Assembly: GCA_963921275.4 (NCBI GenBank)
Contig: OZ001293.3
Location: 5,888,001-5,952,000 of the forward strand
Source of the DNA: an uncultured Hormoscilla sp.
Lineage (GTDB): Bacteria > Cyanobacteriota > Cyanobacteriia > Cyanobacteriales > Desertifilaceae
Length of the DNA: 64,000 nt
Reading direction: 5' to 3'
In this document: positions 25,722-63,388 of the stretch, piece by piece
Layout of the letters: every line of letters begins with the position of its first letter
Numbering within the stretch: position 1 is the first letter of the stretch
Notes under the pieces: generated by a model
What the model was told of the DNA's origin: nothing
The model's input: only the letters and a program-made list of their open reading frames with translations
Database searches by the model: none
Position numbers and translations under genes: made by a program

Positions 25722-25842
25722 GAATTGAGAATTGAAAATTGAGAAAAGTAGATTTATTTATTCATGTCCATTCGCAATTTTCCTTTGTCCATTCGCAATT
25801 TTCCCTTGTCTATTCGCTTTTGTCTATTCGCCATTGTCCATT

Positions 25843-27021
25843 ATGACCTTAAAACATATAAAGATTATCGGGCATCGTGGAGCCAGTGGCTACCTGCCCG
25901 AAAATACCCTAGCTGCTTTTTCTTTAGCGATCGAGATGGGTGCTAACGCGATCGAACTCGACATTGTCCCCACAAAAGAGAGGGAATTAATAGCCCGTCA
26001 CGAAAACGACATCACCCACACTACCAATATATCACATCTGACTGAATTTAGCGATCGCCTGACCGTCAAAAGCATCAACGGCCAAGAAATAACAGGCTGG
26101 TTTACAGAAGATTTCACTTTAGCAGAAATCAAAACCCTCACAGCGAAAGCACCTCCCGATCGCCAACTTGGGTACAATTTAAAGCCTGCGCAGGCAGGCT
26201 TTGTAACTGTAGCCCCACCCTTTAGGGTTGGGGCTCCCGATCGCCAACTTGGGTACAATTTAAAGCCTGCGCAGGCAGGCTTTGTAACTGTAGCCCCACC
26301 CTTTAGGGTTGGGGCTCCCGATCGCCAACTTGGGTACAATTTAAAGCCTGCGCAGGCAGGCTTTGTAACTGTAGCCCCACCCTTTAGGGTTGGGGCGGCG
26401 GCGGTGGGGGCGGAGGTGGGGGCGGTAGTGCCGACATTACAGGAAGTTATCGATCTAGTCAAGCATCAAAGGACAGCTGCCGGGCGGGCGATCGGGCTTT
26501 ACATAGAAATCAAGCATTCTACCTATTTTAGAACAATGGGGCTGCCAATCGAAGAGCCTTTAGTAGAAATATTGGAAAAGAATGGATACAGGACAGCGGA
26601 TGCCCCGATTTTTCGCGCAGCGATCGCGATCGAATCCTTTGAAAGCGAGAGCCTCAAACACCTGCATCAACTTACCCAAGTACCTCTCGTGCAGCTGCGC
26701 CAGGACTTGACATCAGCATCAGAATTAGCTAATATAGCCGAGTATGCTGTAGGATTAGCAGCCTACAAACGTTTAATTGTCCCCACTGACGAACGGGGAC
26801 ATCTGTTAGCGCCTACCTCATTAATTCAGGATGCCCATCAAGTTAATCTAAAGGTGTATAGCTGGACATTTAGAAATGAAAAAATCTATCTCGCCCCCGA
26901 GTACAAAGGTAACCCACAAGCAGAATACGAGCAATTCCTGCTCTTAGGATTAGATGGAGTGTTTAGCGACTTCCCAGATACCGCAGTCTCAGTGCGCGAT
27001 CGGTTCCATCCTTCGCAGTAA
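25843..27021 (+). CDS. Glycerophosphodiester phosphodiesterase with an in-frame repeat insertion
   Basis: IIGHRGASGYLPENTL, IELDIVPTK, ARHE, YIEIKH, GVFSDFPD. Confidence 0.9.
   Translation: MTLKHIKIIGHRGASGYLPENTLAAFSLAIEMGANAIELDIVPTKERELIARHENDITHTTNISHLTEFSDRLTVKSINGQEITGWFTEDFTLAEIKTLTAKAPPDRQLGYNLKPAQAGFVTVAPPFRVGAPDRQLGYNLKPAQAGFVTVAPPFRVGAPDRQLGYNLKPAQAGFVTVAPPFRVGAAAVGAEVGAVVPTLQEVIDLVKHQRTAAGRAIGLYIEIKHSTYFRTMGLPIEEPLVEILEKNGYRTADAPIFRAAIAIESFESESLKHLHQLTQVPLVQLRQDLTSASELANIAEYAVGLAAYKRLIVPTDERGHLLAPTSLIQDAHQVNLKVYSWTFRNEKIYLAPEYKGNPQAEYEQFLLLGLDGVFSDFPDTAVSVRDRFHPSQ
26153..26395. repeat. 81-bp tandem repeat x3 containing a REP-like palindrome
   Basis: Three identical units. The AGCCTGCGCAGGCAGGCTTTG..TGTAGCC core is also intergenic near 41398 and 59062. 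Confidence 0.95.
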
Positions 27022-31213: not shown

Positions 31214-31598
31214 AGGACCAGTCAGATGTGAAGCGCAAGCTACGAGCGGGAAAGATGGCCCAAGAAGCTAAAGCCTAGGGTAATGCCTAGGATACGCCGA
31301 CGTGGGTCGGTGATAGTAGGAAGTCTTGGGTAAAAGTAGCTCTAAACGCTATAAGCCCATCGCCAGAGGTGATGAGGAATGGGCGGTGTCTTCCGCATGC
31401 TCTTGTCCTGAAGGACAAGAGCATGCGGAAGACGCCGGGTGAAAAGGAGCCAAATTACATGAGACAAGGGACAAGGGGAGTAATCCCGAAGTTACCTGCC
31501 CATGACAAGGGCCTATTACCCAGTAGCCTCCTGCGGTAAAGAGAGTCCGGTTCCGCTCTTGGAGGGTCGGGAGGCGACAATGCGGCTCGGGCCCGACT
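31214..31598 (+). mobile_element. Group II intron remnant (DII-DVI, 5'-truncated, degenerate DV)
   Basis: Colinear with the 3' half of 43359-44229 (GATGGCCCAAGAAGC, ACGTGGGTCGGTGATA, TACCCAGTAGCC, GGAGGGTCGGGA). Confidence 0.8.
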
Positions 31599-31726: not shown

Positions 31727-31938
31727 CTGAGACAAAAATATCTCAAAATTATAGGTAATAACCCTCATGCCGAATCTAGCACAATCGATTAATGTATATT
31801 GTAGTCGAAGGACAGGTTCCTAGACCAAAATACTGAGACAAAAATATCTCAAAATCATAGGTAATAACTCTTATACCGAATCTAGCACAATCGATTAATG
31901 TATATTGTAGTCGAAGGACAGGTTCCTAGACCAAAATA
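31727..31938. repeat. 106-bp tandem duplication
   Basis: Two near-identical units starting CTGAGACAAAAATATCTC. Confidence 0.9.
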
Positions 31939-32111: not shown

Positions 32112-32546
32112 ATGGAACCTTTAACGATGGCGGCTGTAGCTATTGGAACTGTATTAGCTACGAAAGCATTGGAAAAAACAGGAGAAAAAGTTGGAGAAGC
32201 AGTATTTGACCAGACTGCAAAGTTTCTAGAATCGCTCAAGCAAGAGTCTCCAGGTACTATGATAGCCATTGAGCAGGCTCCAGAACTACCTTTAGATTAT
32301 GGTAAAGCAGTGCTGGAGATAGAAGCAGCAGCAAAAATCAATCCTCAACTTGCCCAAGGGATGCAGGAATTGGTAACAACAGCAGAAGCTGAGGGAAATC
32401 CCAAGCTAGATGAAGTTCTCCAAGAAATTAAAGATACGCTGAATGATCGACAAGCATCCATGTCTAAATTGGATAAATTTGCAGATAAAATCGGGCAATT
32501 TGTCCAAGCTGGCAGTACGGGTAAAATTGAACATCAGAGCTTTTAA
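32112..32546 (+). CDS. Small helical protein (Bell-domain-like) with a C-terminal motif shared with the next gene
   Basis: Hydrophobic N-terminal helix MEPLTMAAVAIGTVLATKALEK; C-terminus FADKIGQFVQAGSTGKIEHQSF. Confidence 0.75.
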   Translation: MEPLTMAAVAIGTVLATKALEKTGEKVGEAVFDQTAKFLESLKQESPGTMIAIEQAPELPLDYGKAVLEIEAAAKINPQLAQGMQELVTTAEAEGNPKLDEVLQEIKDTLNDRQASMSKLDKFADKIGQFVQAGSTGKIEHQSF

Positions 32547-32710
32547 TTAAAAGTTGTTTGCGCCAGTTATTGATGCTAGGCCGCCCTCCTGGAAGTTATA
32601 GCAAGCCCAAATGATTTGGGAGGGCGGTTATCGCTGAAGGATTTAGGCTAGGGTTATTGAATGTCGAAAATGGGGGGATGTAAGATATATTGGGAAAATT
32701 GGTATTAGCT

Positions 32711-34048
32711 ATGAATAGAGAATATGGTAATTTTGCTGATAAAATAGGTGCTTTCGCTGCTCCAGGCGGTAAAGTTCATATTGAAAACCAAACTATTATT
32801 GTTTCCGAGCAGGATGGGAGGAGCGAAGGACGGAGAGACTGGCAATCAATCAATGCTGGAATGCTCAATACGGTAATCACTGGCAATTATCTGTACAAAC
32901 CAGTGCAGAAGCAGCAGTGTGAGAAGGAAGATTTCTTGAGGGAAAGAATAGCCCAAGAAAAAACCAAGGGAAAGGAAATTGCTTTGATTGGGGAAATGGG
33001 TGTGGGTAAAACTATGCTGGTCCAGGAGATTACAGAATGTGAGTTGGAGCAAAAGTTAGGCTTGGAGGTCGAAAATTTGATAGCAGAAAGAGTAGAAAAT
33101 ATGGGCAAAAAATATCAGGTGAATATCGCCGAGTTAGTGCAACAGTATGATCGATGGGAATTAACTAGCAGGGAAGCAGCAGAAAGATTAGGGAAAATTG
33201 ACACGGTATCGACGATCGCGGGATTAGTGCAACTGCTCCAGAAGACGAGAAATGAAGAAACCCGCAGAAAAGTAGCAGAAATATTAGGGGAAATAGGGAA
33301 GGGGGATTCAGAGGCGATCGCGGGATTAATGCAACTGCTCCAGGATACTAGAAATGAAAACACGCGCCAGGAAGTAGCACGAAGCTTGGGGAACATTGGC
33401 AATGGTGACTCAGAGGCGATCGCGGGATTAGTGCAACTGCTCCAGAAGACGAGAAATGAAGAAACCCGCAGAAAAGTAGCAGAAATATTAGGGGAAATAG
33501 GGAAGGGGGATTCAGAGGCGATCGCGGGATTAGTGCAACTGCTCCAGGATACGAGAAATGAAAACACGCGCCAGGAAGTAGCACGAAGCTTGGGGAACAT
33601 TGGCAATGGTGACTCAGAGGCGATCGCGGGATTAGTGCAACTGCTCCAGAAGACGAGAAATGAAGAAACCCGCAGAAAAGTAGCAGAAATATTAGGAAAA
33701 ATAGGGAAGGGGGATTCAGAGGCGATCGCGGGATTAGTGCAACTGCTCCAGGATACGAGAAATGAAAACACGCGCCAGGAAGTAGCACGAAGCTTAGGGA
33801 ACATTAGCAATGGTGACTCAGAGGCGATCGCGGGATTAGTGCAACTGCTCCAGGATACGATTAATAAAGAAACTCACAGTCAAGTAGCAGAAATCTTAGG
33901 AAAAATTGGCAATAGTTCCTTAGAAACTATCGCAGCTTTACTGGAACTGTTACAGTCATCTCAAGAAGAAGTAAACAACTGGAAATTAGGAGCAAGTTTG
34001 GGATTTTTTGGCATCGGATCTCGGTCTGCGATCTCGGCTTTAGAATAA
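32711..34048 (+). CDS. HEAT/PBS-lyase repeat protein with a truncated NACHT-like P-loop
   Basis: IALIGEMGVGKT, then alternating 35-aa repeats (IGxGDSEAIAGLVQLLQ; 210-bp period). Confidence 0.8.
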   Translation: MNREYGNFADKIGAFAAPGGKVHIENQTIIVSEQDGRSEGRRDWQSINAGMLNTVITGNYLYKPVQKQQCEKEDFLRERIAQEKTKGKEIALIGEMGVGKTMLVQEITECELEQKLGLEVENLIAERVENMGKKYQVNIAELVQQYDRWELTSREAAERLGKIDTVSTIAGLVQLLQKTRNEETRRKVAEILGEIGKGDSEAIAGLMQLLQDTRNENTRQEVARSLGNIGNGDSEAIAGLVQLLQKTRNEETRRKVAEILGEIGKGDSEAIAGLVQLLQDTRNENTRQEVARSLGNIGNGDSEAIAGLVQLLQKTRNEETRRKVAEILGKIGKGDSEAIAGLVQLLQDTRNENTRQEVARSLGNISNGDSEAIAGLVQLLQDTINKETHSQVAEILGKIGNSSLETIAALLELLQSSQEEVNNWKLGASLGFFGIGSRSAISALE

Positions 34049-34184
34049 CTTATCTCGTCGTATATATTGGAAATAATATTTGCATAATTAGCAGGTATTC
34101 TATAGAGATCCTAAATACTAGTGTAGAAGCTTGCTACGGGCGGCGGAGCCGCGAAAATTGGTTGCTAGTCTGGAGACTAGCAAA

Positions 34185-34384
34185 TTATGCTTCAACGAGG
34201 GCTGGTCCCTCGACTTTTATCTCCCAAACGCTGCAAAGACTTACTTTCCGACCTACTCAACCCGAGCAAAAATGGCAATTTTTCCTTGATGGTAGCGATG
34301 GCGGCGAGAACAGCCAGTTTATCTTCAGGGGATAAACTGGCACTAATGCGATTTTCGGTCATCTTCTCCAACTCCGAGGGATGA
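34185..34384 (-). pseudogene. Internally deleted copy of the 160-aa gene cassette
   Basis: MTENRISASLSPEDK..RLGDKSRG is fused to the cassette tail motif GAGGGACCAGCCCTCGTTGAAGC. Confidence 0.85.
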
Positions 34385-34396
34385 ATAAAAATCAAT

Positions 34397-34551
34397 TATA
34401 GCGTTTCTCAAATTGATGTGGTATCGCCTATTTGTCATTGCGATTTTTCGCGCAGCGTGGGGGGGAGACTAGCGAGTAACTTATGCTTGATGAGCTACCC
34501 CCCCGAAGCAATCTCCGAGAGCATATCACACTAAGAAATAGAACTGCTATA
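34397..34551. mobile_element. TA-ended MITE
   Basis: TATAGCGTTTCTC..GAACTGCTATA; homologous to 12716-12983. Confidence 0.65.
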
Positions 34552-34816
34552 TAACCTCACGGCCCTAATTTCCCCACCCCCAGGGAAAGCATAGCATGTA
34601 AAAGCCTGATGGTGAAAATTTTCGATTTTTCGCGTAGCGTGGGTTGGAGCCCGAGAAGAGCTGGGAGTACAGTGTCAATTTCGCCCTTGTGAAGTGCTAA
34701 TATTATACAGAAATCATCCCTCTGAGTAATCACAGGTAATGTAGAGTAAAATATCTAGGAAAGATCGGGAATAAGAAAAGAGATATGACAGAAACTTGGA
34801 TATAGTATAGGAGATT

Positions 34817-35539
34817 TTGCTCGTGATTTACCAGATAAAAAACAGCCCGCTAGATAATTCTCTAGGTTGGACCGAAAATCGGAAAACGCCTCCCCTGGAA
34901 AGTGGCGATCGCCTCTCACGTCCAGAATTTGAGCGTCGCTACGCAGCCATGCCCGAAGGTCAAAAAGCAGAACTAATTGAAGGAGTAGTATACTTGGCAT
35001 CACCATTACGCTTTGAGAGTCATGCTGAACCCCACGCATCAATTATTACCATGCTGGGAATTTATCAAATCAGTACCCCTAGAGTCAGGTTAGGAATTGA
35101 GCCGACGGTACTGCTGGATCTAGACAACGAACCTCAGCCTGATGGAGTTTTGCTTTTGGACGAAAGGGTAGGAGGGCGATCGCGTTTGCTGGAGTCAGAT
35201 TACATTGAAGGAGCACCGGAACTGGTAGTAGAAGTAGCAGCTAGCAGTGCTGCTAGGGACTTGCACGACAAGCAGCGGGCTTATCGGCGCAACGGCATTC
35301 AAGAATACATTGTTTGGCAGATTTTTGAGAACCAGCTAGACTGGTGGCAGCTAGTGGATGGGGAATATGTGGCCCTGGAACGAGACTCGGAAGGTATAAT
35401 AAAGAGTCAGGTATTCCCAGGATTGTGGTTGGATGTATTGGCATTGCTGGATGGAAACATGAGTCAGATAATGGGGGTATTGCAGCAAGGATTGAATTCC
35501 CCAGAACATGATAATTTTGTGCGCCGCTTGTCCGAGTAA
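34817..35539 (+). CDS. Uma2-family endonuclease
   Basis: PPLESGDRL, KAELIEG, NEPQPD, GAPELVVEVAASS, IQEYIVW. Confidence 0.92.
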   Translation: MLVIYQIKNSPLDNSLGWTENRKTPPLESGDRLSRPEFERRYAAMPEGQKAELIEGVVYLASPLRFESHAEPHASIITMLGIYQISTPRVRLGIEPTVLLDLDNEPQPDGVLLLDERVGGRSRLLESDYIEGAPELVVEVAASSAARDLHDKQRAYRRNGIQEYIVWQIFENQLDWWQLVDGEYVALERDSEGIIKSQVFPGLWLDVLALLDGNMSQIMGVLQQGLNSPEHDNFVRRLSE

Positions 35540-35653
35540 GAACGATAAGCAGTAGGTTGGGTTTCGTGCCTCAACCCAACCGATAAATGTTGTTGGCGTT
35601 GAACAGGGAGTGCGATCGAGCCCTCTGAGTAATAACCGGTAATGTAGCGGAAA

Positions 35654-35815
35654 ATGTCTAGCAAAGATCCTGAAAACGTCCACGTTGCCACAGATCGGCA
35701 AAAGTGTCGGGATATGGCACGCAAGTATAGATGGAAACTAAAAGCAATTAGACCAACACGCGATCGCATTCTGAAAGTTGATTGCGTGTTCGATGGAGAA
35801 CAAACTTCATTTTAG
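35654..35815 (+). CDS. Small hypothetical protein (53 aa), not in the ORF track
   Basis: MSSKDPENVHVATDRQKCRDMARKYRWKLKAIRPTRDRILKVDCVFDGEQTSF, directly upstream of the next gene. Confidence 0.5.
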   Translation: MSSKDPENVHVATDRQKCRDMARKYRWKLKAIRPTRDRILKVDCVFDGEQTSF

Positions 35816-35825
35816 GAAGAGAGAT

Positions 35826-36194
35826 ATGACTGAAACTTGGATAATTTACAAAGCGGAAACAATTGAGGATCCAGAATGGGAAAAACGCCAACTGATGCCC
35901 TCTGGCTCTCTGACTGATATACTATGGGAAAACTGGGATTATTCTGGAAGCTTGCCAGCAGTGGGCGATCGCATACGAGAATACTTACAAGATAAAGAAA
36001 CCGGAAAAGTTACCCACGCCCGGGATGGAGATTGGGTAGTAACGCAGATGCATCAGTTTAACTCCATTAACACGGAGATGCGCATCGTCGTTTGTTATTG
36101 CCAGTTCCAAGCGATCGACCGCCAATGGGAACAGTTGCAACGGGGCAAACCTGTAGATGAAATCCTATCTGCTGAAGTTGTAGAAGTTAGGTGA
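35826..36194 (+). CDS. Hypothetical protein
   Basis: MTETWIIYKAE..LTDILWENWD..GDWVV..IVVCYC; purine-rich upstream sequence. Confidence 0.7.
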   Translation: MTETWIIYKAETIEDPEWEKRQLMPSGSLTDILWENWDYSGSLPAVGDRIREYLQDKETGKVTHARDGDWVVTQMHQFNSINTEMRIVVCYCQFQAIDRQWEQLQRGKPVDEILSAEVVEVR

Positions 36195-57166: not shown

Positions 57167-57901
57167 CTAGGCCTTCATCTGTGAAATAATCTGCAAACTC
57201 ATTTCGCTAGATAACTCCCATTGCCGATTTTCAAGAGCGACTTTCTGTAAAAATATCAGATAGTTCGGCTTGCAAATACAGGGGTTCGGCTTCGGCGTAT
57301 CGTCCTTGGGACTTGTAGAGTCCTGCCAGGCCGTTGAGACTTTTGGCCACATCGGGATGTGCGGACCCCAGCAGTTGCTTTCTCATCTCCAAGGCTTCTT
57401 TATACAGGGGTTCGGCTTCGGCGTATCGTCCTTGGGACTTGTAGAGTCCTGCCAGGTTGTTGAGAATGGTGGCCACATGAGGATGTGCGGACCCCAGCCG
57501 TTGCTTATACATCTCCAAGGCTTCTTTATACAGGGGTTCGGCTTCGGCGTATCGCCCTTGGTCCGAGTAGAGTCCTGCCAGGTTGTTGAGACTTTGGGCC
57601 ACATGGGGATGTGCGGACCCTAGCAGTTGCTTTTGGATCTCCAAGGCTTCCTTATACAGGGGTTCGGCTATGCGCTGCGCGCACGCTGCGCGGACGGCGT
57701 ATCATCCTTGGGAGTAGTAAAGTAAGCCAGGTTGTTGAGACTGGTGGCCACATGGGGATGTGCGGACCCCAGCAGTTGCTTTCTCATTTCCAAGGCTTCG
57801 GTAAGCAGGGGTTCGGCTTCGGCGTATCGCCCTTGGGAGTAGTAGAGTTCTGCCATGTCGTTGAGACTGGCCGTATAATCATTCGACTGTTCGTTTGTCA
57901 T
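57167..57901 (-). pseudogene. Kinesin-light-chain-type TPR protein, frameshifted
   Basis: 42-aa repeats HPxVAxSLNNLAxLYxSQGRYAEAEPLY, with frameshifts, a CGA>TGA change and a 24-nt insert. Confidence 0.88.
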
Positions 57902-58193
57902 ATCGTTCCTCTTTTGTAAATTTGTTAAGCATTATATGATTGCGCTTCAACGAGGGCTAGTCCCTCTTCACCTCTGCGAATCCTTCGACGGTTCGTTTGT
58001 CATATCGTTCCTTCTTTGTAGATTTGTTAAGCATTATATGATTACGCTTCAACGAGCGCTGGTTCCTCTTAACTTTGACCTGTCCGATCGGTGACGAGCC
58101 TAAGTCTCTCTTAACACCGGTCTGTCCTCATGGTCTAACTTGAACCCTCGTCATGGGTGGCCGGGGAGAATGAAACAGACATGTTGGCCTCTT

Positions 58194-58382
58194 GAGAGGT
58201 TTAAAACCTCAACTGAGAGGTTTAAAACCTCAACTGAGAGGTTTAAAACCTCAACCGAGAGGTCTAAAACCTCAACCGAGAGGTCTAAAACCTCAACCGA
58301 GAGGTTTAAAACCCCAATTGAGAGGTTTAAACCCCCAACCGAGAGATTTTCAACCCCAACCGAGAGGTCCAAAACCAGAACA
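58194..58382. repeat. 21-bp tandem array, 9 units
   Basis: Consensus GAGAGGTTTAAAACCTCAAC(C/T) with an internal GAGGTTT-A-AAACCTC palindrome. Confidence 0.95.
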
Positions 58383-58438
58383 GTGAGGCATGGGTTTGTA
58401 GATAGGTGCCGGTTGAGGTCAAAGTACCCTCCCCAGAA

Positions 58439-58921
58439 CTAAGACTCAGGCTGTTGTGACGCCCCACTGCTGGACTTGCGGGCGAACCGACGGGCCATAT
58501 CGTCCACAGCCGCTTCTAACCCCGCATTTCCTTTGGTCGCCTTGGCATAGTTATAAACCTCCAAAGCTGCCATATAAGCCTCGCTTCCTACCACTGCCAC
58601 GGTATCGTCCAGAAGTTCCTGAAGTTGACTTACTGCCAAGACAATGGGATAAAGGGCCTCAAACAGTTCCATATCTTTCCGCATCTCCTCGATATCAAAA
58701 GATCGGGGCAAAAAATCCGGGTTTTGGGTCGCCACTTCCAATGCCTTGACCACAAACCCCCGACTTTTATCTCCCAAACGCGGCAAAGATTTGCTTTCCT
58801 CGGGACTCAACCCGAGCAAAAATGGCAATTTTTCCTTGATTTTAGCGATCGCGGCGAGAACTGCCTGTCGATCTTCAGGCGTTAAACTGGTACTAATTCG
58901 ATTTGCAGTCATCTTGTCCAA
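58439..58921 (-). CDS. Conserved ~160-aa helical protein of unknown function
   Basis: Intact ORF (LPFLLGLSPEE..LGDKS..NPDFLPRSFD..LDDT..GSEAY..VYNYAK) with two paralogous fragments in this window. Confidence 0.85.
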   Translation of the reverse strand: MDKMTANRISTSLTPEDRQAVLAAIAKIKEKLPFLLGLSPEESKSLPRLGDKSRGFVVKALEVATQNPDFLPRSFDIEEMRKDMELFEALYPIVLAVSQLQELLDDTVAVVGSEAYMAALEVYNYAKATKGNAGLEAAVDDMARRFARKSSSGASQQPES

Positions 58922-58954
58922 CTCCGAGGAATGACATCAACTTCTCTATTTTGA

Positions 58955-58986
58955 CCAAGTATATCCTTGGAAAAGGATATACTTGG
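58955..58986. promoter_or_regulatory. Perfect 14-bp inverted repeat upstream of the 160-aa gene
   Basis: CCAAGTATATCCTT-GGAA-AAGGATATACTTGG. Confidence 0.5.
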
Positions 58987-59011
58987 GTGTAGTCTTGCGC
59001 CCGTTGGTGAC

Positions 59012-59159
59012 GGGTGCATCTGCTATGCACGCAAAGGTACATTAATAATACATGTAATGAGCGCCCGCGAAGGCGGGCTTTGTTTGTGTAGCCGGACCCT
59101 TAGCTGCTGCGCAGCAGTTTCCTATTAGGGTTCGGGCGATGCAAATATGAGATGCACCC
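59012..59159. mobile_element. MITE with an internal REP
   Basis: GGGTGCATCT..AGATGCACCC ends. Confidence 0.6.
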
Positions 59160-59231
59160 ACCCTCAATACTTCTCGGTTAACAACTTGTCATTGCGATTT
59201 TATGCGCTGCGTGGGGGGTCGGACCTGCCCG

Positions 59232-59381
59232 AAGCACTTTAGTGCTTACTACGAACCGCCCCAAGCACTTTAGTGCTTACTACGAACCGCCCCAAGCACT
59301 TTAGTGCTTACTACGAACCGCCCCAAGCACTTTAGTGCTTACTACGAACCGCCCCCAGTAAAGTGCTTACTACGAACCGCC
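59232..59381. repeat. 31-bp tandem REP-like repeats (about 5)
   Basis: AAGCACTTTAGTGCTTACTACGAACCGCCCC units with no unique spacers. Confidence 0.9.
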
Positions 59382-59476
59382 CATCGCTTATCGATTAACA
59401 AAACTTAACTTGCCGAACCGACCGGTTCCGTGTTAAATTTAAGTCAACAAGAAATGAAAACCAAGAAAAGAAGGAG

Positions 59477-60415
59477 ATGTCGGTGATGGAAAAACCAACT
59501 AAGAAAAAACCTACATTCATCAGTCCCACAGTCGATTATGCGTTCAAAAAAATATTTGGCTCTGACAGAAGTGAAGATATTCTGCTCAGCTTCTTGAATG
59601 CAATAATATATAAAGGGGAAAACGTCATATCTTCCTTAACAATTACAAATCCTTACAACCCGGGTCAAGTAAAGACATTAAAGGACAGTTACTTGGATGT
59701 GAGAGCGGTACTAAGAAGTGGAGAGATAGTCCTGATAGAAATGCTAGTAGCACGGGTGCAGGCATTTCACAAGCGAGTGACCTACAATATGTGTAAGTCC
59801 TATGCGAATCAGTTGGATGAAGGAGAATTTTACCTGGGGATAGCACCAGTGATAGCAGTGACTGTAACAGATTTTATCCTGTTCAAGGAAAGCAAATTAA
59901 TTCATCATTTTGTGTTCCGAGAAAAAGAAGAAAAGGGGACAGAGTATCCGGAGCATGAATTACAGCTCGTATTTGTGGAATTGCCAAGATTAAAAAAAGA
60001 GTTGAAAGACCTGATGACCTTAACAGATAAATGGATTTATTTCATTAAACATGCGTCAGAATTAACGGAAGTTCCTCCGACTTTGGGAGAGATAGCAGAA
60101 ATAGACAAGGCATTAAAGATAGCAAAGCTAGTTAATATGGAGCCGGAAGAAGCAGAAGCAGTAATAAGTCGTGCAATAAGTTTGCAAGATGAGATAGGAA
60201 AGATTAAGTATGCAAATGAAGAAGGGCGCATTACTGAAGCAGGGACTTTGGTAATGCGCCTGCTTAAAAAGCGATTTGGAGAAATGACAGAGGAAATAAA
60301 TAGCGTCATAGAAAGTTTGTCGCTGTCAGATTTAGAAAGGTTAACAGAGGATATTTTGGATTTTAATAGTCGGGAAGATTTGTTGCATTGGTTGTCGTCA
60401 GCCTCTAAGTATTAG
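59477..60415 (+). CDS. Rpn-family PD-(D/E)XK nuclease/putative transposase with a DUF4351-like tail
   Basis: DYAFKKIFG, YLDVRA..IEM, FVELP, KWIYFIK, RLLKKRFG..LERLTEDILDF. Confidence 0.9.
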   Translation: MSVMEKPTKKKPTFISPTVDYAFKKIFGSDRSEDILLSFLNAIIYKGENVISSLTITNPYNPGQVKTLKDSYLDVRAVLRSGEIVLIEMLVARVQAFHKRVTYNMCKSYANQLDEGEFYLGIAPVIAVTVTDFILFKESKLIHHFVFREKEEKGTEYPEHELQLVFVELPRLKKELKDLMTLTDKWIYFIKHASELTEVPPTLGEIAEIDKALKIAKLVNMEPEEAEAVISRAISLQDEIGKIKYANEEGRITEAGTLVMRLLKKRFGEMTEEINSVIESLSLSDLERLTEDILDFNSREDLLHWLSSASKY

Positions 60416-60526
60416 TTTTTGGGCTCTGGCAAGGACTAGAAACCGGGTTTCTCTGTTCAACCTTGGGTAAAGACTTTTGGATATCGCCCCGGTTTCTTGC
60501 CACAATGCCCATGTTGTGAAATCAGA

Positions 60527-60657
60527 ATGGGTTCGGCTATGCGCTGCGCGCACGCTGCGCGGACGGCGTATCGCCCTTGAGACCTGTAGAGTTCTGCCAA
60601 ATTGTTGAAACTGGTGGCTACATCTGGATGTGCGGACCTCAGCAGTTGCTTTCTTTC
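60527..60657 (-). pseudogene. Isolated TPR repeat fragment
   Basis: One degenerate repeat carrying the same 24-nt insert as at 57670. Confidence 0.7.
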
Positions 60658-60754
60658 CGCTCGTCGTATCCCTTGCGGGAGCGCAGCGCAATCCCTTTCA
60701 AGGTATATACAGGTGAGCGTCGAGTCTGACAGTGGGCACGGCCCACTCTACTGG

Positions 60755-62343
60755 CTATAGATTAAAACTGCCGAAGCCTTTGTTGTTCTTGCTCTTTTTC
60801 TTTTTCTTCTTAGGAGTCCCGCCGCTGTAGCCCCACTCGTTAGATAACTCCCCTTGCCGATTTTTAAGAGCGACTTGCTGTAAAAACATCAGGTAGTTCT
60901 GCTGAAGTTTCTGAGTAAGGGGATGATCTTGTCCTAGTTGTGAAATCAGAATAGTTACAGCTTCCTTAAACAGGGGTTCGGCTTCGGCGTATCGCCCTTG
61001 GGAGGAGTAGAGTAAAGCCAGGTTGTTGAGACTGCCGGCCATATGGGGATGTGCGGACCCCAGCAGTTGCTTTCTCATCTCCAAGGCTTCCTTATGCAGG
61101 GGTTCGGCTTCTGCGTATCGTCCTTGGGAGTAGTAGAGTTCTGCCAGGCCGTTGAGACTGCTGGCCACATGGGGATGTGCGGACCCCAGTAGTTGCTTAG
61201 ACATCTCCAAGGCTTCCTTAAACAGGGGTTCGGCTTCGGCGTATCGCCCTTGGGAGTCGTAGAGTCCTGCCAGGTTGTTGAGACTGGTGGCCACATTGGG
61301 ATGTGCGGACCCCAGCAGTTGCTTCTGGATCTCCAAGGCTTCCAAATACAGGGGTTCGGCTTCGACGTATCGCCTTTGAGACCTGTAGAGTTCTGCCAGG
61401 TTGTTAAGACTGGCGGCCACATCTGGATGTGCGGACCCCAGCAGTTGCTTTCTCATCTCCAAGGCTTCCAAATACAGGGGTTCGGCTTCGGCGTATCGCC
61501 CTTGGTCCGAGTAGAGTACTGCCAGGTTGTTAAGACTGCCGGCCACATCTGGATGTGCGGACCCCAGCAGTTGCTTTCTCATCTCCAAGGCTTCCTTATA
61601 CAGAGGTTCGGCTTAAACAGGGGTTCGGCTTCGGCGTATCGCCCTTGGGAGTAGTAGAGTCCTGCCAGGTTGTTGAAACTGTTGGCCACATCTGGATGTG
61701 CGGACCCCAGCAGTTGCTTTCTCATCTCCAAGGCTTCCTTATACAGAGGTTCGGCTTCGGCGTATCGCCCTTGGGACTTGTAGAGTAAAGCCAGGTTGTT
61801 GAGACTGGTGGCCACATCGGGATGTTTCGACCCCAGCAGTTGCTTAGACATCTCCAAGGCTTCCTTATACAGGGGTTCGGCTTCGGCATATCGCCCTTGG
61901 AACCTGTAGAATTCTGCCAGGTTGTTGAGACTGGTGGCCACATCGGGATGTTTCGACCCCAGCAGTTGCTTAGACATCTCCAAGGCTTCCTTATACAGAG
62001 GTTCGGCGTCGGCGTATCGTCCTTGGGATTCGTATAGTCCTGCCAGGTTGTTGAGACTGGTGGCTACAGAAGGATGTGCGGACCCCAGCAGTTGCTTTTT
62101 CATCTCCAAGGCTTCCTTAAACAGGGGTTCAGCTTCGGCGTATCGCCCTTGGAACCTGTAGAGTACTGCCAGGTTGTTGAGACTGGTGGCCACATCGGGA
62201 TGTTTCGACCCCAGCAGTTGCTTAGACATCTCCAAGGCTTCGGTAAGCAGGGGTTCGGCTTCGGCGTATCGCCCTTGGGACATGTAGAGTTCTGCCCGGC
62301 TGTTGAGACTGGCCGTATAATCATTCGACGGTTCGTTTGTCAT
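60755..62343 (-). pseudogene. Kinesin-light-chain-type TPR protein, frameshifted by a 17-nt duplication
   Basis: About 11 42-aa repeats; GCCGAACC(C/T)CTGT(T/A)TAA is duplicated near 61597-61630; C-terminus KKKKKKSKNNKGFG. Confidence 0.9.
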
Positions 62344-62376
62344 ATCGTTCCTCCTTTGTAGATTTGTTAAGCATTA

Positions 62377-63388
62377 ACTCAAGTTGCGACCTATAAAAAT
62401 TGGATACAAAAAGCTATGATAAAGAGAATTATTTTCAACTCTAATCCCTTAGATGTAACAGCATGAATTGACTTGGGAAACAAATTGGTGATTCGACTAA
62501 AACAGGTTTCAACTTGTTTTCTTGTTACTTTTTGTATATATTCAAAACAAGAATATTCTTTTCTTTTTGAGTTCTTTTTTCGCAAAGGTTTTAACATTAT
62601 ACTTGACGACTCTTTTAGTAAATCCTCTAATTGATAATCATTATAAGCTTTATCTCCATAAACTATTGAATTTGATGGTAAGTCAAAGCCAAAAGATTGC
62701 AAAACTTTAACATCATTATAACTACCAGGATCTAGATAAAATTCTATTGGCTTTCCATTTTTGTTTACCAACATATGAACTCTTAATCCATAAAAATAAC
62801 GTTTTTTACTGGCAATATACCCTCGATATTCTTCCTTGTTATAAATTTGGCATCTATCAATCCTAATATTATCACATACTGGCACCGGGAAACTATCAAG
62901 AATATATTCTTGACCCGGATTGAGCTCTTTAAATGTTTGAGCTATAACTTGGAAGAAAAACATCCAAATTGGTTCGTCAATATTGTGTAATCGACGATTG
63001 AACCTACTTTTACTTAACAGATTTTTTATATACTTGTGTTCGACCATAAATTGACAAGAGCGATCGTGGTGTCCTCCGAAAAAATATGCAGCAACTAATC
63101 CGACTGTCATCACTTCGGCATTGTTCATTTTTACTTGTGGATCTTCTTTTATATTTAACGCTTTTAGTAGCTCGTCACAAAGAACAAAAATTGTTGTAAT
63201 CATATCTTCCATCATCTACATCCCCCAGCAATTAACTATTATTTTAGTACATTATAACCTATAAACAGCCAACCCGCCGTCTAGCACAAAAAAAATATAA
63301 TTTTGTATCAAAAGCTACGAAATATCCCAAATATCTGTAAAGTCTAAGTGGGTAATTCATATTTTTTTTAATAGGTCGCAACTTAGGT
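62377..63388 (-). mobile_element. IS982-family element, transposase intact (62391-63215)
   Basis: TIR AC(TC/CT)AAGTTGCGACCTAT; 9-bp TSD TAAGCATTA; LDSFPVPVC, YFYGLRVH, YGDKAY, RKQVETCFS. Confidence 0.95.

Follow-up and report, generated by a model that had tools for sequence, protein, structure and literature searches.

A BASS5 Bell-effector/NLR-like gene pair with a NACHT-deleted receptor in an uncultured Hormoscilla sp., a likely decaying remnant of a predicted amyloid-triggered defense

Gene organization of the locus

The analyzed window, a stretch of 64,000 bp from an uncultured Hormoscilla sp. (contig OZ001293.3, positions 5,888,001 to 5,952,000, forward strand), contained two adjacent genes that carry related 22-residue motifs, one at the C-terminus of the first gene and the other at the N-terminus of the second. 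The features of the pair are given below by their positions in the window, and a TTG at 32690 is a possible alternative start of gene 2.

32112..32546, + strand: gene 1, 144 amino acids (AA), Bell-type effector candidate (ORF, homologs, structure model, published tails)
32112..32180, + strand: MEPLT start and hydrophobic helix 1, predicted to be membrane-targeting (model helix 3–23, hydropathy)
32478..32543, + strand: effector-side BASS5 motif (HMM, 37.8 bits; published C07 peptides)
32547..32710, + strand: spacer of 164 nt after the TAA stop of gene 1 (sequence)
32711..34048, + strand: gene 2, 445 AA, an internally deleted NLR-like receptor arranged as BASS5, NACHT remnant, and HEAT repeats
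32732..32797, + strand: receptor-side BASS5 motif (HMM, 45.8 bits; FADKIGAFAAPG also in BAZ70469.1)
32882..33070, + strand: NACHT remnant with a strand, Walker A, and the next helix, ending at about AA 120 (alignment)
33071..33212, + strand: deletion junction (about 33070–33081) followed by degenerate HEAT repeats (repeat analysis, contigs)
33213..34022, + strand: HEAT array of 8 repeat cores with 34-AA (102-nt) spacing (HEAT_2 match, repeat analysis)

The shared motif and its family

The original prediction held that the C-terminus of gene 1 and the N-terminus of gene 2 have a motif in common, and this was borne out at the positions it gave. Translation of the 144-AA ORF (32112–32546) placed FADKIGQFVQAGSTGKIEHQSF as the last 22 AA of gene 1 (32478–32543), and translation of the ATG-start ORF (32711–34048, 445 AA) placed FADKIGAFAAPGGKVHIENQTI at AA 8–29 of gene 2 (32732–32797). 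The two were identical at 11 of 22 positions with a BLOSUM62 local score of 51, which was reached by none of 20,000 shuffles (maximum 44). Among 2,708 adjacent co-directional ORF pairs of the genome, nine including the window pair scored at least 51, and the remaining eight, judged by their printed sequences, resembled repeat proteins or other frames of them. A motif HMM was built from 56 distinct non-Hormoscilla motifs of the collected loci, some of them identical to published entries. Across the 215,723 reading frames searched in the genome, it returned four matches of 37.8–45.8 bits, followed by a next score of 10.6; these were the window pair and one paralogous pair at C1:4964745, and no further BASS5 carrier was found by the HMM in this 96.7% complete genome. 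Chance similarity of the two motifs was ruled out by the shuffles, the ORF-pair scan, and the HMM.

Near-identical peptides could be found by eye under cluster C07 in supplement 1 of the PMC8086366 dataset, whose README equates C07 with BASS5. Gene 1 homologs such as P0012 end in a peptide that is listed unchanged as an effector-side C07 entry, and the receptor-side entry BAZ70469.1 has FADKIGAFAAPG in common with gene 2. By these peptide matches, the motif is assigned to the already numbered, published cyanobacterial family BASS5, which settles the point that the original prediction had left undecided; a new motif family was ruled out by the C07 matches and the README mapping.

Pairing and co-variation in homologous loci

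Pairing was assessed in the best 80 of 340 genome loci with gene 1 homologs. In 46 of these 80 loci the next gene started with a matching motif, so that the pairing on which the original prediction depends was found beyond the window. The motif was of the BASS5 type in 44 of the 46, and L081 and L101 were paired through other tails. An in-frame TGA junction took the place of the paired motif in 24 loci and four were unpaired, among them L033 just below the cut-off; a further four had too little flank, and two were excluded for being long or fused. The paired partners outside Hormoscilla matched NB-ARC in 37 of 42 cases and NACHT in one (L028).

Members of the gene 1 effector family with other tails, each matching the N-terminus of its neighbor, were present at L010, L018, L081, L101, and L108, and the L081 partner was an nSTAND1 protein. 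The five pairs with non-BASS5 tails scored 60–94 against their own partners and at most 33 across types. The effector tail and the partner head thus change in step, the motif co-varying in both genes, although the loci are related to one another, so that pairing and co-variation do not amount to an independent statistical test.

In the 24 TGA-type loci (L029, L053, L056, L064, L065, L067, L068, L072, L075–L077, L079, L080, L084–L086, L088, L090, L092, L094, L096, L097, L099, and L100), the Bell gene ended in TGA and was followed by a long in-frame ORF with neither a motif nor a start of its own; L007, L008, L017, and L022, outside the 24, were also of this type. The long frame was NLR-like in most TGA-type loci, and the junction was conserved as TGA-CTN-SAG-TCG-YC in most, which makes these loci candidates for programmed readthrough. 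For readthrough, as for truncated amyloid receptors, the literature search, with most subscription journals outside it, yielded only fungal NLR papers. The window pair does not belong to the TGA type, since the stop of gene 1 is TAA and gene 2 lies in another frame. A readthrough fusion at the window locus was likewise ruled out by the TAA stop and an in-frame run of only 8 codons. At L104:1477-3627, a Bell domain was fused in frame straight to a long HEAT array in a 717-AA frame without NACHT.

Gene 1 as a candidate Bell-type effector

A total of 543 gene 1 homologs were collected. Among the 120 matches listed, the closest named relatives were Hormoscilla proteins with 93–96% identity, Hormoscilla being an uncultured filamentous sponge symbiont (PMC6520454), and the remaining named ones were cyanobacterial, mostly from Nostocales. 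The hydrophobic N-terminal helix that had been predicted was confirmed by hydropathy (mean Kyte-Doolittle 1.7 over AA 6–20) and by the structure model, which gave a predicted helical bundle at AA 1–116 with helix 1 at AA 3–23 and a tail (AA 117–144) with pLDDT below 50.

Bell effectors are described in 10.1101/2020.01.06.895854 as helical proteins of 120–145 AA with a hydrophobic first helix and an acidic residue at position 2–3, and gene 1 agrees with this description in its MEPLT start, helix 3–23, and helical bundle. Its start also resembles the 'MEPIS' motif region of Bab (10.1101/2024.11.07.622273), and tails of its homologs were identical to published Bell-side BASS5 entries (PMC8086366). 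No Pfam, NCBIfam, or PADLOC family passed its cut-off in gene 1, Foldseek gave nothing at E < 0.001, the fold search reached a best Z of 5.9 to unrelated bundles, and the Atlas neighbors were unnamed or HetE-N at 20%. The fit of gene 1 to the Bell-type effectors therefore rests on the start and helix features together with the published tails. Upon activation it may damage the membrane and kill the cell, as suggested by Bab.

Architecture of gene 2 and loss of the NACHT core

Over its first 120 AA, gene 2 aligned with the BASS5-NACHT protein of L028, which is intact; the alignment covered Walker A (GEMGVGKT, AA 94–101, 32990–33013) and the following helix, and the NACHT remnant had 46–48% identity to the intact NACHT of L028, L103, and L109. 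The C-terminal repeat sensor matched HEAT_2 with an E value of 1e-94. In repeats 2–6 of the array alternate copies were 97–100% identical in DNA, and the sequence was HEAT-like from about 33081, to which repeat families D2 and D3 extend back.

No NACHT match could be found in gene 2 with PF05729, and a genome-wide NACHT search returned nothing at the window locus. The NACHT Walker B signature D[GAS]hDE, as defined in 10.1101/2022.07.19.500537, was absent from all three forward frames of gene 2. In relatives, the distance from Walker A to the first HEAT repeat was 451–904 AA with a median of 535 (51 measurable of the 150 nearest representatives), compared to about 60–75 AA in gene 2. Gene 2 lacks about 400–470 residues, Walker B among them, and is not an intact NLR. 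A search for longer homologs of AA 1–175 of gene 2, in itself a weak test, found none. Of the P-loop and HEAT repeats originally noted in gene 2, both could be confirmed as Walker A and HEAT_2, with no NACHT domain in between.

The deletion junction was bridged by contigs in four of four sequencing runs, of which X4 may be the source of the window itself. An assembly artefact at the junction was ruled out by these bridging contigs and by the same junction in L023, L025, and L026.

Sister copies, paralogs, and signs of decay

The window copy of gene 2 is one open frame of 445 AA with motif and Walker A intact. Its sister copies were damaged in several ways: L023 had two in-frame stops, and L024 lacked the sequence corresponding to window 32738–35963, leaving gene 2 missing from codon 10 onward. 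L025 and L026, although near-identical to each other, carried different frameshifts, which may stem from errors of assembly. Sequencing run X5, which may or may not represent a further strain, had a 5-nt deletion at 33062, and P0122 read as an X5-like frameshift allele. The window gene 2 stops 19 codons ahead of the L004 copy, with two stops within those codons. The pN/pS ratios were 0.76–0.95 for gene 2 and 0.29–0.58 for gene 1, with only 4–6 synonymous differences per comparison.

The paralogous BASS5 pair (G000:C1:4964745-4963435, − strand) had a degraded Walker A, a deleted NACHT, and a 5-nt frameshift within its HEAT part; this out-of-frame indel was the fourth between the two loci. About 14 kb past the window end lies a third Bell locus (G000:C1:5966203-5967779, + strand) of the in-frame-TGA type. 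It is decayed: its tail is interrupted by a premature TAA, a frameshift is present, and the NACHT deletion leads directly into HEAT repeats. The partner gene is thus NACHT-deleted and frameshifted at both other Bell loci of the genome.

The rest of the genome yielded no intact BASS5 receptor: of 9 NACHT and 5 NB-ARC matches obtained genome-wide, none was among the BASS5 hits, and several of the seven inspected were in pieces. A strict junction scan of the same genome returned nothing because only open frames were admitted. With L028 as query, a class-wide search of 151 genomes found five NACHT loci, located in three genomes, and no Bell gene was seen upstream in those of the loci that were listed.

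Proposed mechanism and alternative explanations

The two genes are best explained as a Bell-effector/NLR pair with BASS5 in which the receptor no longer has a NACHT core. The window copy is therefore probably inactive and in decay, the remains of a predicted cell-death defense with an amyloid trigger, and we give this reading a probability of about 72%. The Bell/BASS-NLR two-gene layout of the original prediction is supported, the motif being paired and co-varying; a working NACHT-HEAT receptor is not, since the NACHT core is deleted and the sister copies are broken or gone.

In the intact ancestor, as suggested by relatives such as L028 and P0140, recognition of an invader protein would fall to the HEAT repeats, and oligomerization of NACHT would cluster the N-terminal BASS5 motifs. 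The clustered receptor motifs would template the C-terminal BASS5 of the effector into a cross-beta stack, which would free helix 1 of the Bell domain and lead to membrane damage. The sensing, oligomerization, amyloid templating, helix 1 release, and membrane damage steps are proposed by analogy with HET-S/NWD2 and Bab/Agp. In the window copy the oligomerization step is likely lost, and its regulation would not be expected now that Walker B is gone together with the helical and winged-helix domains.

Gene 2 may otherwise be a streamlined, ATPase-free receptor, in which in-frame excision of the NACHT core joined BASS5 almost directly to a HEAT array that binds a multivalent ligand, clusters BASS5, and seeds the effector. 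The frame is open, the junction is in frame, and the three N-terminal indels against the paralog (123, 6, and 123 nt) are all in frame, a 1 in 27 chance if they are independent. At approximately 20% DNA divergence from the paralog no stop occurred in about 180 codons, and in a neutral simulation the frame survived in 7% of cases at 10% change per lineage; however, the divergence may predate the deletion. The HEAT repeats are near-identical, and NACHT-to-HEAT deletions recur in the genome's own loci A and B, in the Bell-HEAT fusion of L104, and in P0196. Agp also seeds a Bell-type effector without a NOD (10.1101/2024.11.07.622273), so that a NOD is not the sole way to do so. Against this, no intact sister copies were seen, the recent pN/pS is near 1, and a near-length search found only the paralog. 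Among the 150 nearest representatives, BASS5 without a NOD was present only in P0122 and P0164, both Hormoscilla-type, and for this reason a working NOD-less receptor is considered improbable, at odds of about one in eight.

Slightly less probable still is that the shared motif serves as a non-amyloid docking tag, for example a helix plus strand, that couples receptor and effector stoichiometrically. BASS5 is atypical among BASS families, and the general amyloid grammar modelled it poorly, with a disordered set as its nearest match (PMC8086366). The structure model gives AA 117–132 of gene 1 as a helix, at pLDDT below 50. The literature search, again with most subscription journals outside it, found no experiment on BASS5; only PMC8086366 proved relevant to the family and amyloid, PMC12261475 contributed nothing on BASS5, and the experimental sections of 10.1101/2020.01.06.895854 deal with BASS1 and BASS3. 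However, the layout is the same as that of BASS1, BASS3, and BASS11, which form amyloid (10.1101/2020.01.06.895854; 10.1101/2024.11.07.622273), beta and ArchCandy propensity was reported for all ten families (10.1101/2020.01.06.895854), and in the gene 1 effector family other BASS-like tails can take the place of BASS5. Amyloid formation and cross-seeding by BASS5 are treated here as predictions from analogy.

It is most doubtful that gene 1 is kept for use without gene 2, through another trigger or spontaneous conversion and with gene 2 as debris or a motif-absorbing decoy: gene 1 is open in L023–L026 even where gene 2 is deleted, has a lower pN/pS than gene 2, and has a tail conserved between paralogs (dN/dS 0.15; 4 synonymous, 3 non-synonymous), but the genome search turned up no further BASS5 carrier, gene 1 is likewise relaxed in paralog comparisons (dN/dS 0.5–0.68), and short genes remain open longer by chance.

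Comparison with known systems

The reading preferred here, a decaying BASS5 pair, could be compared with four known systems. Published BASS5 Bell/NLR pairs (10.1101/2020.01.06.895854; PMC8086366, C07) resemble the window pair in the motif on both sides and its positions, the collinear adjacent genes, the 120–145 AA effector, and filamentous cyanobacterial relatives. The word 'HEAT' is absent from the main text of 10.1101/2020.01.06.895854. The window receptor differs from these pairs in its NACHT-HEAT descent, whereas 37 of 42 collected partners match NB-ARC, with TPR in most of those scanned at full length; it differs also in its deleted NOD.

NWD2 of the fungal HET-S/NWD2 pair has a WD40 sensor. 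As described in 10.1101/2024.11.07.622273, this system likewise places a NACHT receptor next to a membrane-targeting effector with a shared motif, but unlike the window pair it has a HeLo effector, another motif, and an intact NACHT. The Bab/Agp system with BASS11 (10.1101/2024.11.07.622273) shares with the window a small helical effector with a MEPIS-like start and C-terminal motif, and an adjoining partner whose N-terminus carries that motif. The motif itself differs, the partner is TPR-GreA/B-PIN, and the antiphage activity was tested in E. coli, whereas the window pair is known from sequence alone. With regard to bacterial NACHT proteins (10.1101/2022.07.19.500537), the Walker A region and HEAT part of the window are homologous to the cyanobacterial NACHT-HEAT proteins L103, L109, and P0140, but the D[GAS]hDE Walker B signature and the remaining parts of the module are missing from gene 2.

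With the window pair, BASS5, for which only computational descriptions were found, gains a member with a HEAT sensor and NACHT ancestry, and the BASS5 module is seen to erode in a lineage with sponge symbionts as its named relatives. Intact relatives (L028, P0140-like) would be better subjects for a BASS5 experiment than the window pair. If the deleted receptor does signal, amyloid signaling can shed its ATPase switch, and ATP-independent sensors or decoys could then arise by way of the NACHT-to-HEAT excisions that recur in this lineage.

Other features of the window

A tandem duplication of 106 nt was observed upstream of gene 1 (31727–31938), present as a single copy in L023–L026, and a near-perfect 26-nt inverted repeat with a 2-nt loop was located at 31384–31437. 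A small gene that is fragmentary at 34192–34395 has a full-length copy at 58936–58442. On the − strand, a TPR gene in several pieces spans 57234–63215, with a transposase-like ORF (63215–62394) at its 5' end. On the + strand, the ORF at 25732–27021, which we take to resemble a glycerophosphodiester phosphodiesterase, contained three tandem copies of a 27-AA insert.
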